Positions 45,277 through 48,864 of a stretch of 64,000 nt of DNA are shown here, piece by piece; position 1 is the first letter of the stretch; the number at the start of each line of letters is the position of its first letter. Both the position numbers and the translations under genes were made by a program. Location of the stretch: NCBI GenBank assembly GCA_020353515.1, contig CP070695.1, positions 2,642,155-2,706,154 on the forward strand, in the 5' to 3' direction. The notes beneath the pieces were generated by a model. That model was not told the origin of the DNA. It saw nothing but the letters and a program-made list of their open reading frames with translations, and did not search any database. Source of the stretch: Candidatus Heimdallarchaeota archaeon. Its GTDB lineage: Archaea; Asgardarchaeota; Heimdallarchaeia; Hodarchaeales; Hodarchaeaceae.

Positions 45277-46542
45277 TTGAATAAGAAGCAAAAAAACAAC
45301 ATTGAAACTAAGAAGAATAGTAAATGGTATTCAGGGAACGTTTTATTACTGGGTCTCGTATCTTTCTTTGCAGATATATCAGGAGAAATGATGACTCCTG
45401 TATTGCCCCTGTTTATTGCTGCATTAGGTGGCTCTAGTATAGTTGTTGGATTTATCGGGGGTTTAGGAGATGCTGTTGCGAATATTGTAAAAGTCATTTC
45501 TGGGTACTTAGCTGACAAAACAGCAAGAAGAAAACAGCTGATTGCAGTAGGATATGGCATTCCTTTTTTCGCAAAGCTTGGAATTGGCCTATCAAACTCT
45601 TGGGAACAAGTACTAATCTTGAAACCGACAGAAAGGCTGGGAAAGGGAATTCGAGGTGCTCCCCGCGATTCATTATTAGCTGATTCAATCCCTTTCGAGT
45701 TAAGAGGAAAAGCTTTTGGCTTCCATCGAATGATGGACACAGCAGGAGCCATTATTGGATCATTTCTAGCATTAATTATTGCTCTTCTCTTTTTCAATGT
45801 TTTAATTAGTGAATTAGAAATTCTCAAGATTATCATAATCATATCCGCCTTCATATCATTACTTGCAGTAATTCCGATATTTTTTATCTCTGATTCAGCG
45901 GAACTAACACCTAAAGGAGAGCAACGAAAAATAAGTTTAGTCCAAAATCTTAAAGAATTGCCGAAGAGCTATTATAAATTTTTAATTGTCTCAATAATCT
46001 TTGGTTTAGCTAATTTTACTATCCTCCTGTTTATTCTACATTCAAAAAATGTTGTTCTAGGAATAGATGAGACATCACCCCCTCTTGTCTTAATAACAAT
46101 CCCAATTATTATTTTTATCTGGTTCAATATAGTTTATACGGTTTTATCAATTCCTTTTTGTGATTGGTCTTACAAGTATTGGCGGAAACCAGTTTTTGCA
46201 ATTGGTCTCGCTCTATTTGCCATTACATGTTTTGGTTTCCTATTCACTACGATTTTTATCCTGCTTTTCTTATTCTTTGGAATATATGGAGCCTTTAATG
46301 CAGCAACTGATGGAATCCAAAAAGCATTTGCAGTAGATCTACTTCCCCAAGATCTTAAAGGAACGGGAATAGGATTATTGCAGACTTTAATGGGGTTTGC
46401 AGGCATTCTTGGTGGATTTATTGCTGGTTACCTATATAATTTTGAAGCTAATCTTGCGTTTATTTATGGAGGGATTATGACAATCATTGCATTAGTTTTA
46501 TTGCTGCTAACCACCTTCACGTCTAAAGAGAGGGCTTCTTAA
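45277..46542 (+). CDS. MFS transporter
   Basis: GYLADK..RRK motif A, ERLGKGIRGAPRD; about 12 TM helices. Confidence 0.93.
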   Translation: MNKKQKNNIETKKNSKWYSGNVLLLGLVSFFADISGEMMTPVLPLFIAALGGSSIVVGFIGGLGDAVANIVKVISGYLADKTARRKQLIAVGYGIPFFAKLGIGLSNSWEQVLILKPTERLGKGIRGAPRDSLLADSIPFELRGKAFGFHRMMDTAGAIIGSFLALIIALLFFNVLISELEILKIIIIISAFISLLAVIPIFFISDSAELTPKGEQRKISLVQNLKELPKSYYKFLIVSIIFGLANFTILLFILHSKNVVLGIDETSPPLVLITIPIIIFIWFNIVYTVLSIPFCDWSYKYWRKPVFAIGLALFAITCFGFLFTTIFILLFLFFGIYGAFNAATDGIQKAFAVDLLPQDLKGTGIGLLQTLMGFAGILGGFIAGYLYNFEANLAFIYGGIMTIIALVLLLLTTFTSKERAS

Positions 46543-46632
46543 AAAATATGATTTTAATATTAGTATGATCTGTTTAACGTAAGAATTTATCCTCATATTA
46601 GTATGAGCTCCAAAACGGAAGCAAAATTTAAG

Positions 46633-46737
46633 CGGGCACAGAGGGATTTGAACCCCCGACCAACAGGTATCTTCAGTCAAATTCTTAAAATATGAACATT
46701 AAAAGCCTGTCGCTCTACCTGGCTGAGCTATGCGCCC
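46633..46737 (-). tRNA. tRNA-Lys(TTT), 31-nt intron at 37/38 (46699-46669)
   Basis: GGGCGCA/TGTGCCC acceptor, ACAGG/CCTGT stem, BHB core CTTT/GAAG. Confidence 0.93.
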
Positions 46738-46746
46738 TTAGGTTTC

Positions 46747-46854
46747 TGGCGCCCCGGTCGGGATTTGAACCCGAGTCGGATGGGTTCGGCAGACTATCAG
46801 AGTTGATAAGGCTTTGACAGCCATCAATGCTAGGCCAGACTACACCACCGGGGC
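46747..46854 (-). tRNA. tRNA-Asp(GTC), 30-nt intron at 37/38 (46814-46785), CCA encoded
   Basis: GCCCCGG/CCGGGGC-G-CCA, GATGG/CCATC stem. Confidence 0.93.
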
Positions 46855-47041
46855 TAGATACCAAGTGAAGGTCTTAATTACCTTAGCGATAAATAAGCGT
46901 CCACGTCTGTCCCTTCTTTCTCAATTTTTTAAATTGATCCTCTCTTAAAGAAGTTCCTGCATAACCTTAAAATCCTAGAGCCATTGCAAGGAAAATTGCC
47001 GAATACCCCTTCGTGTAAGGTGATTACCCCTAATTATATGT

Positions 47042-47262
47042 GCTGGGGTGGCTTAAACGATAATAATCATTTTATCGTGGCGAAGCCTGGTATAATCATA
47101 CTGTCTATAGTCAGAATGCCGAGAGCGCGGGACTCATAATCTGAGAACAATTCTCATAGCGTTCTAAGGGCACGAATCTCGCTTTCAGACGAGACATCCC
47201 GAAGTCGGGGGTTCGAATTTAGGTAAAATGCATTTTATCAAACGAAAAGCCCCCCCCCAGCA
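47042..47262 (+). tRNA. Elongator tRNA-Met(CAT) with four introns (14/15, 21/22, 37/38, 59/60)
   Basis: Exons 47042-55, 47085-94, 47123-38, 47196-217 and 47249-62 join to a 76-nt cloverleaf; each junction folds as BHB or relaxed BHB. Confidence 0.87.
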
Positions 47263-47341
47263 TGTTTATTTCAATCTAACAATTTCAGGAAATAATGTAT
47301 AGAGAAAATCAATATAACAGAAGACATGGTAATCATTATAT

Positions 47342-47448
47342 GCTCCGATAGTGTAGCTCGGCCCATCATTCAGGGCTCTCAATGAAAGTCTATTAATCAG
47401 ATTTTCAGGAGCTCCCCTGTGACCCGGGTTCAAATCCCGGTCGGAGCA
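47342..47448 (+). tRNA. tRNA-Glu(CTC), 32-nt intron at 37/38 (47382-47413)
   Basis: CAGGG/CCCTG stem, BHB core CTCT/GGAG, 9-bp outer helix. Confidence 0.94.
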
Positions 47449-47499
47449 TTCCTTATCCTTCGATAGAATCCAGAATGAGAATTTTTTCTATTTATATAC

Positions 47500-48864
47500 T
47501 TACCCAAATAATCCCTCAAAACCAGGTGGGATCCCACCAGGAGGAGCCCCACGGCGTCCTCGCATTTTTCGCATCGCTTTTAATGATTTTGAAGCTTGGT
47601 TAAACTGGTTTAAAAGGAGTTTTACTTCTTGAGGGGAAGTACCTGATCCTTGTGCTATCCTTTGAATACGTCTACCTTTAATTATTCGAGCATTATCCAA
47701 TTCTTCCTCTGTCATTGAATTACAAATTGCGATAAATCGTTTCACATTTCTTTGACCTTCTGCTTCTAATATGGGTTGTTGACCCGTTATAGCACCAACT
47801 CCAGGTATTTTGGAAACCAATTTTCCTATAGATGATTGCTTACTCGCATTCTCCATTTGGATTTTAAAATGTCGTAGAGTTAATTTTCCTTTTTTGAAAG
47901 CATCGCGAAGTTCAGCCGTGTCTTGCTCATCAAATGCTTCGTTAACACTTTCTATTAAACCCTCGATATCACCAAGCCCTAAGAGAGATCCAACAAATCG
48001 AGTTGGATTAAACTCCTCTAAATCTTGAATTTTTTCCCCGTCACCATAAAATCGAATTTTTGCTCCTGTTACAGCAACAGCAGAGACAGCCCCTCCACCT
48101 TTAGCGGAACCATCCATCTTTGTTAAAATGATTGACCCAATAGGGGTTGTACGATTAAAAGCATCTGCTTGTGCTTGAGCTTGTTGACCTATTGTAGCAT
48201 CAATCACTAGGATAATTTCTGTGGGTTTAGCTATTTTAGCAATTTCTTGCATTTCTTTTAATAAAGCTTTTTCCTCTTTATGTCGTCCTGCTGTATCTAG
48301 TAATATGAGATTGATATTCCTTTTCTCTTTAAAATAGCTTAATCCTTTTTTAATTATTTTTGAAGCTTTTTTCTCCTTTTCATCCCCAAAAACCTCAACA
48401 TTAATGGGAGCAAGATATTGTTGAAGTTGAGCTAAAGCACCGGGTCTAAACGTATCACCTCCTATAACTCCAACGGAATATCCCCTTTTCTGGAAATAAT
48501 TTGCAGTTTTCCCGATACATGTTGTTTTACCTGATCCTTGGATACCGATGAACATTAAAATAGATAAATCATCAGGATTTAGGCGTAAAGGAGTAAATTT
48601 CTTACCCAATAGGCTGGCCAGTTCATCATAGATCACTTTCAGAGTATAATCTTTACGACTAATAGCCATAGGTAAGATGTCTTTGAGAGCTCTCTCACGT
48701 ACTCTTTCAGTAACATTTAGTACTAAATCAAGGTTAACATCAGCTGCAAGCAGAGCGTTTTCTAAATCATTAATCAATTCATTGATCAATCTCTCATCAA
48801 CAATGGGTGCACCACGAATTTTCATGATTGTTTTACGTAATGATGAGCTTAAAGTATCTAGCAT
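47500..48864 (-). CDS. srp54: Signal recognition particle protein SRP54
   Basis: ALLAADV, GIQGSGKTT, DTFRPGA, DTAGRH, TKMDG, SMT.EE. Confidence 0.98.
   Translation of the reverse strand: MLDTLSSSLRKTIMKIRGAPIVDERLINELINDLENALLAADVNLDLVLNVTERVRERALKDILPMAISRKDYTLKVIYDELASLLGKKFTPLRLNPDDLSILMFIGIQGSGKTTCIGKTANYFQKRGYSVGVIGGDTFRPGALAQLQQYLAPINVEVFGDEKEKKASKIIKKGLSYFKEKRNINLILLDTAGRHKEEKALLKEMQEIAKIAKPTEIILVIDATIGQQAQAQADAFNRTTPIGSIILTKMDGSAKGGGAVSAVAVTGAKIRFYGDGEKIQDLEEFNPTRFVGSLLGLGDIEGLIESVNEAFDEQDTAELRDAFKKGKLTLRHFKIQMENASKQSSIGKLVSKIPGVGAITGQQPILEAEGQRNVKRFIAICNSMTEEELDNARIIKGRRIQRIAQGSGTSPQEVKLLLNQFNQASKSLKAMRKMRGRRGAPPGGIPPGFEGLFG

Follow-up and report, generated by a model that had tools for sequence, protein, structure and literature searches.

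At positions 47042–47262 of the window, by which we mean the whole 64,000-nt stretch of DNA that was analysed and whose numbering is used here unless a genome coordinate (contig C1) is given, the forward strand carries a 221-nt locus that, judged from its sequence, is very probably a functional single-copy elongator tRNA-Met(CAU) gene interrupted by four archaeal BHB introns. The host, a Hodarchaeales-type Asgard archaeon (Heimdallarchaeia), has a genome of 4.94 Mb in a single contig, AT-rich (35.8% GC) and mesophile-like. Exon 1 (47042–47055, 14 nt) provides the acceptor 5′ strand, U8, G9, the D-stem 5′ strand and A14, and is followed at 14/15 by intron 1 (47056–47084, 29 nt). Exon 2 (47085–47094, 10 nt) is a micro-exon holding the D loop with G18 and G19; intron 2 (47095–47122, 28 nt) follows at 21/22 in the register first noted. 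Exon 3 (47123–47138, 16 nt) contains the D-stem 3′ strand, position 26, the anticodon-stem 5′ strand and the loop with CAU and A37, after which intron 3 (47139–47195, 57 nt) occupies the canonical 37/38 position. Exon 4 (47196–47217, 22 nt) runs from A38 through the anticodon-stem 3′ strand, the variable loop and the T-stem 5′ strand to T-loop positions 54–59, intron 4 (47218–47248, 31 nt) lies at 59/60, and exon 5 (47249–47262, 14 nt) supplies G60, the T-stem 3′ strand, the acceptor 3′ strand and the discriminator A73, with no encoded CCA.

Joining the five exons yields a 76-nt product that folds into a flawless tRNA-Met(CAU) cloverleaf, in which the acceptor stem has 7 bp, the anticodon and T stems have 5 bp each, and a D arm is present. 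ARAGORN calls the joined exons tRNA-Met(cat), and does so in both registers of intron 2 described below. The first-pass annotation had proposed that removal of four inserts would reduce the locus to such a tRNA; this call and the orthologs bear it out, and the insert lengths and coordinates that it gave match the sequence. Upstream of the gene, about 60 nt (46955–47020) are strongly conserved in the closest congeners, far above the 3′ flank, and may represent a promoter or leader common to divergently oriented tRNA genes.

Anatomy of the BHB motifs and the register of intron 2

Compared with a BHB motif of two 3-nt bulges, a 4-bp central helix and at least one flanking helix, with the cuts at the exon–intron borders, the motifs of introns 2 and 4 are strict and those of introns 1 and 3 relaxed. 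Intron 4 presents a strict hBHBh′ motif in which all four pairs of the TTCG/CGAA central helix form, as had been proposed for this insert; the T stem serves as the outer helix and the inner helix is a long hairpin (BHB score 4,2,5). Intron 3 likewise has an hBHBh′ architecture; three of its four central pairs form and the remaining one is an A–C mismatch, the inner helix measures 7 bp, and the anticodon stem acts as outer helix (3,7,5). Intron 2 forms four of four central pairs in either register, next to a 2-bp flank. Intron 1 is a relaxed HBh′ motif, with a 3-bp central helix (GCT with GGC), a well-formed 5′ bulge and a 7-bp inner helix, the outer helix being absent (3,7,0). The helices of introns 1 and 3 that had been described as outer are thus inner, intron–intron helices (h′).

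BHB-like motifs are common when boundaries are left free (48 canonical-class matches inside the 221 nt), so that a motif alone is no evidence, and we instead kept the boundaries fixed and compared the motifs with a random null. The motif quality seen at introns 1, 2, 3 and 4 occurs at random genome positions with frequencies of 3e-4, 6e-3, 2.5e-6 and 5.5e-5, respectively. The four motifs use separate nucleotides, and the sequence consequently demands no order of excision; ordered splicing, regarded as probable in the first reading, would not be required by this anatomy. D-stem bases take part in two of these helices, the central one of intron 1 and the outer one of intron 2, so the D stem should be able to form only after both have been removed.

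Within intron 3 (47139–47195), all 17 congeners keep a bulged-G hairpin (AAGGGC ... GCGCTT), which other families of the class share in the form AAGGGC/GCTT; the remaining intron sequence diverges. A box C/D guide in this intron was considered and rejected, since the C box is absent and the D box is absent in outgroups. A GTGGC direct repeat at the ends of exon 1 and intron 1 was likewise discarded as a target-site duplication: it is not conserved in orthologs and is partly forced by the central helix.

The cleavage sites given here are predictions, those of intron 2 especially. Placing this intron at 47095–47122 captures a genuine insert with GGTA/TGCC pairs, but an equally paired alternative at 47094–47123 (30 nt, at 22/23, central helix TGGT/GCCG) leads to a product of 74 nt; its D arm is identical to that of every species without intron 2, and it matches the tRNA of the congener G006 at 71/74 positions. 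In the first-noted register, moreover, 6/11 species lack pairing at the fourth central position. Because of the D-arm match and this unpaired fourth pair, we slightly prefer the shifted register as the predicted one; the micro-exon stands in either case, and may measure 9 nt instead of the 10 nt originally assigned if the intron begins at 47094.

Conservation and intron presence among relatives

A BLAST search of the locus against 40 relatives recovered an ortholog in 16 other species of the genus, making 17 congeners with this genome. Introns 1, 2, 3 and 4 are present together in eight (G000, G017, G014, G008, G011, G007, G012, G015); two have introns 1, 3 and 4 (G021, G010), three have introns 2 and 3 (G005, G016, G001), three have introns 1 and 3 (G013, G002, G004) and one has intron 3 only (G006). 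Intron 3 thus occurs in 17/17 congeners, and it is found in outgroup genera as well. The G006 ortholog, bearing the canonical intron alone, is matched over its full length by Rfam RF00005 at 50.6 bits.

Orthologs lacking an insert show directly how the exons join, exactly as predicted for introns 1 and 4 and within 2 nt for intron 2. Exons 1 and 2 are contiguous in the four congeners without intron 1 (G005, G016, G001, G006), an intron that is also absent from four readable outgroup orthologs. The congeners without intron 2 (G021, G010, G013, G002, G004, G006) carry the sequence of the alternative-register product, and exon 2 is contiguous with its neighbours wherever intron 1 or intron 2 is missing. 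In the seven congeners without intron 4, the T loops match the predicted junction. These T loops also bear on G60, which had been noted as unusual in the spliced product: the base is indeed there, but it is not odd in this lineage, since intron-free T loops of orthologs and outgroups share it.

The conservation pattern across the eight four-intron species tracks the exon/intron borders exactly. Variable columns number 5/76 in exons vs 71/145 in introns (Fisher p 3e-11, illustrative only, as the species are related). Exon 1 is invariant, the micro-exon has 0/10 variable columns and exon 3 has a single one, its first base. Pair counts, made on the structure written from the BHB model, show 92% of cells paired, vs 43–49% when partners are slid by 1–3 columns, and 11 pairs with changes on both sides vs 4.5 expected, a number reached by 0/500 shuffles. 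In the inner helix of intron 1, compensatory changes affect five of seven pairs. At intron 4, T-loop position 57 of the exon (G/A) covaries with a base of the intron in the central helix (C/T), with GC in 5, AU in 4 and GU in 1. This exon–intron covariation, together with the ortholog series of one to four introns, provides evidence for splicing of the inserts that does not depend on the motif.

These data weigh on two other readings of the locus. Two of the four motifs are relaxed (three of four central pairs in introns 1 and 3, no outer helix in intron 1) and neither ARAGORN nor Rfam recognises the locus, as one might expect of a pseudogene in decay that retains some or all of its inserts, methionine then being decoded via another gene. 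We regard such decay as very improbable: the exons, micro-exon included, are almost invariant while the introns diverge, compensatory changes maintain the splicing helices, the same four-intron structure is kept in eight species, and no other elongator CAU tRNA was found in a genome scan that requires an intact anticodon stem-loop. The inserts could also be assembly or chimera artefacts, the genome being a metagenome-derived single contig with an estimated contamination of 7%. This we find scarcely credible, since separately assembled contigs from two public sediment DNA runs, one of which may be the source sample of the genome, span all four inserts with 0–2 mismatches, and the same inserts, diverged in sequence, are present in seven other genomes of the genus. 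Artefactual inserts, which the first-pass annotation had named as a possible refutation, are accordingly not borne out by the independent contigs and genomes. By sequence comparison, then, the four-intron gene is real and almost certainly functional.

In the outgroup orthologs of G022 (a different family of the order) and of G028 and G038 (different families of the class), the canonical intron stands alone. A single intron is therefore the ancestral state, introns 1, 2 and 4 having been gained inside the genus or at its base. A further ortholog, G024, combines the canonical intron with a T-loop intron of unrelated sequence; in this member of a different family of the class (C12:56910–57460) the T-loop intron sits at about the same position as intron 4, which suggests an independent gain at a splice-competent site. 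In a single-protein tree (topoisomerase), whose outgroup branch is very long, the four-intron species form a weakly supported basal grade, and the order of events is left undecided. A BLAST comparison of the locus with its host genome returned no second copy of any intron (best other match 22 nt, E 0.06), and the lack of a donor copy elsewhere in the genome argues against simple copy-and-paste. One possible reading, which we put forward tentatively, is that the genus preserves a stepwise 1-2-3-4 intron series, a record of very recent and repeated gain, perhaps also loss, of BHB introns at splice-competent sites.

Probable elongator identity and the tRNA complement of the genome

The predicted product has the features of an elongator tRNA-Met: its 7-nt anticodon loop contains CAU flanked by U33 and A37, and its discriminator is A73. 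The gene has a G1–C72 pair and the anticodon stem CGGGA/TCCCG, and is without the A1–U72 pair and the G29–G31/C39–C41 run of initiators. An initiator tRNA is encoded separately at genome positions 4003217–4003314 (minus strand), with A1–U72, three G–C pairs adjoining the loop and one intron. In this initiator gene (C1:4003217–4003314) the canonical intron is 19 nt long, the ARAGORN fold has a mismatched T stem, and a 3′ CCA is encoded, unlike in the elongator tRNA-Met.

The genome also encodes TiaS, so that three CAU tRNAs are expected. A CAU tRNA at genome C1:2823463–2823589 (plus strand), with introns in the D loop and at 37/38, has the same GGGCC acceptor start as tRNA-Ile(GAU) and is probably tRNA-Ile2; this gene is missed by both ARAGORN and Rfam. 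The assignment matters for a reading that accepts the four introns and takes the mature product of the locus studied here to be tRNA-Ile2, its CAU modified to agmatidine by TiaS. Since TiaS is encoded, Ile2 must be among the non-initiator CAU tRNAs; Ile2 and Met cannot be told apart by the anticodon on its own, and the D arm of our gene resembles that of tRNA-Ile(GAU). We nevertheless judge this identity improbable, somewhat less so than pseudogene decay, because it is the tRNA at 2823463–2823589 that shares the GGGCC start with tRNA-Ile(GAU), whereas the gene at 47042 begins GCTGGGG and, with an initiator also present, would fill the elongator-Met slot.

The first-pass annotation had asked whether another elongator tRNA-Met exists in the genome. 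A scan for CAU tRNAs found the initiator, the Ile-like tRNA and the gene at 47042–47262 only, and no other unannotated tRNA candidate of the genome contains a CAU loop. Loose versions of the scan returned thousands of false matches and were replaced by stricter, scored ones; under strict settings, a genome-wide search for CAU tRNAs whose D and T arms are interrupted gave 47042–47262 as its sole match. The scan requires an intact anticodon stem-loop, so a further disrupted copy could escape it. The locus is most likely the sole elongator tRNA-Met of the genome, and, as the only elongator-type CAU tRNA found, the gene should be essential and spliced.

Standard tools overlook the gene, as had been anticipated. 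Applied to the unspliced window, ARAGORN reports one intron-free tRNA only, at another position; the Rfam tRNA model reports five tRNAs in the window, none of them at 47042–47262, and at E up to 10 over 46500–47600 it gives no match in the locus or in intron 3. Genome-wide, 28 tRNAs are recovered by Rfam and 35 by ARAGORN with introns allowed, and with so few recovered, many tRNA genes must be hidden. We find about 43 T-arm/acceptor candidates in the genome, many of them 100–220 nt long; the 221-nt locus is the longest precursor among them.

Several of the other tRNA genes are interrupted at comparable sites. T-loop introns of about 29–31 nt occur in genes at C1 positions 1308686–1308821, 2677738–2677877, 2694365–2694500, 2712552–2712688 and 2801200–2801368; most of them end in GAAAA, as a TTCA/TTCG central helix followed by an AA bulge demands, and the site is shared among many unrelated tRNAs of the genome. 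A tRNA-Arg(GCG) gene (C1:2758341–2758472, minus strand) has a 30-nt intron at 14/15 that resembles intron 1 of the tRNA-Met gene in architecture and in its GGCAAA-type 3′ end, with an unrelated stem sequence. This TiaS-encoding genome also contains an intron-free, low-GC tRNA-Ile(UAU) of bacterial-looking sequence (C1:387279–387351, minus strand), possibly brought in by a mobile element or virus.

Splicing enzymes and comparison with known multi-intron tRNAs

Two EndA paralogs are encoded in the genome, an alpha subunit of 183 aa and a beta-like protein of 212 aa. The alpha subunit aligns end to end with that of Aeropyrum pernix (3P1Z_B; E 1.9e-43), ungapped through the Crenarchaea-specific loop; its Lys39 is aligned to the functional Lys44 of A. 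pernix, and the catalytic Tyr, His and Lys motifs are present. The beta-like paralog has its nearest counterparts in the ARMAN-2 and M. kandleri units. RtcB is encoded as well (540 bits). Asgard archaea have been described as possessing an (alpha-beta)2 EndA with an L1 loop, linked to relaxed cleavage of non-canonical introns (Kaneta 2018, PMC5829648). By homology, the host thus encodes an EndA of the type that cuts relaxed motifs, together with an RNA ligase. A relaxed-specificity EndA had been named at the outset as a need of this gene, and an alpha subunit with the loop lysine plus a beta-like paralog would meet it. The nearest known enzyme is the A. pernix EndA (PDB 3P1Z/3AJV; PMC3241643, PMC5829648), which the host resembles in the alpha alignment, the loop lysine and the separate beta-like paralog; it differs in that the beta-like subunit is nearer to ARMAN-2 and M. 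kandleri than to A. pernix beta, and the subunit composition and activity of the host enzyme are those predicted by homology.

From these elements we infer the following course. The locus would be transcribed as a precursor of about 221 nt, in whose fold a helix of 3–4 bp, flanked by two 3-nt bulges, would form at each intron. A heteromeric (alpha-beta)2 EndA, with the alpha subunit carrying the specificity-broadening loop, would cut within each bulge, the D stem coming together once introns 1 and 2 are out, and RtcB would ligate the five exons into a tRNA of 74–76 nt.

The four introns had at first been thought to exceed a reported maximum of three per gene, which the literature on Asgard archaea contradicts. 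In complete Atabeyarchaeia and Freyarchaeia genomes, introns occur in 92–95% of tRNA genes and several are present in over half (Valentin-Alvarado et al. 2024, PMC11291895); Supplementary Data 4 of that study lists four-intron tRNAs for Freyarchaeia Arg-TCT, Ile2-CAT and Leu-GAG and for Atabeyarchaeia-2 Trp. A preprint by Goswami et al. (October 2026, 10.64898/2026.10.13.758758) puts the average number of intervening sequences per gene at 2.2 across three families, the highest count in a single gene being five, and finds that tRNAscan-SE misses 30%, mainly in the D arm; several Heimdallarchaeia lineages have fewer than one per gene, and the main text makes no mention of Hodarchaeales. Four-intron tRNAs are therefore already known in other Asgard archaea, and the present gene is a well-supported further example, not a record.

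The likeness to the Atabeyarchaeia and Freyarchaeia tRNAs (PMC11291895; 10.64898/2026.10.13.758758) is extensive: an Asgard host with most tRNA genes interrupted, many non-canonical introns in the D arm and T loop, D-arm introns that standard software misses, an alpha + beta EndA background, and up to four (curated) or five (census) introns reported per gene. The difference is one of lineage, the published cases being from Jordiarchaeia/Freyarchaeia and Atabeyarchaeia, whereas the present gene is a Hodarchaeales elongator tRNA-Met. The three-intron tRNAs of Thermoproteales (Pyrobaculum, Thermofilum, Caldivirga; Sugahara et al. 2008, cited in PMC11291895) similarly combine canonical with non-canonical BHB introns and include relaxed HBh′/hBH motifs, and their (alpha-beta)2 EndA likewise bears the Crenarchaea-specific loop; they come from another phylum, and from thermophiles with GC-rich tRNAs, while here four introns are found in an AT-rich, mesophile-like genome. 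In the literature on Asgard multi-intron tRNAs we found no description of a series from one to four introns within one genus. As for Thermoproteales tRNA genes, to our knowledge three introns per gene is the maximum.

What makes the gene valuable is therefore its lineage and the unusual clarity of the comparative proof rather than its number of introns, and the upper limit per tRNA gene is unchanged. Hodarchaeales, usually taken to be the Asgard order nearest to eukaryotes, gain a clean four-intron tRNA that is validated by comparison, and annotation pipelines overlook what is most likely this genome's only elongator tRNA-Met. The locus is a good substrate for probing the range of Asgard EndA and, if the stepwise series is true, the genus could be used to work out how BHB introns arrive, in the archaeal lineage nearest eukaryotes.
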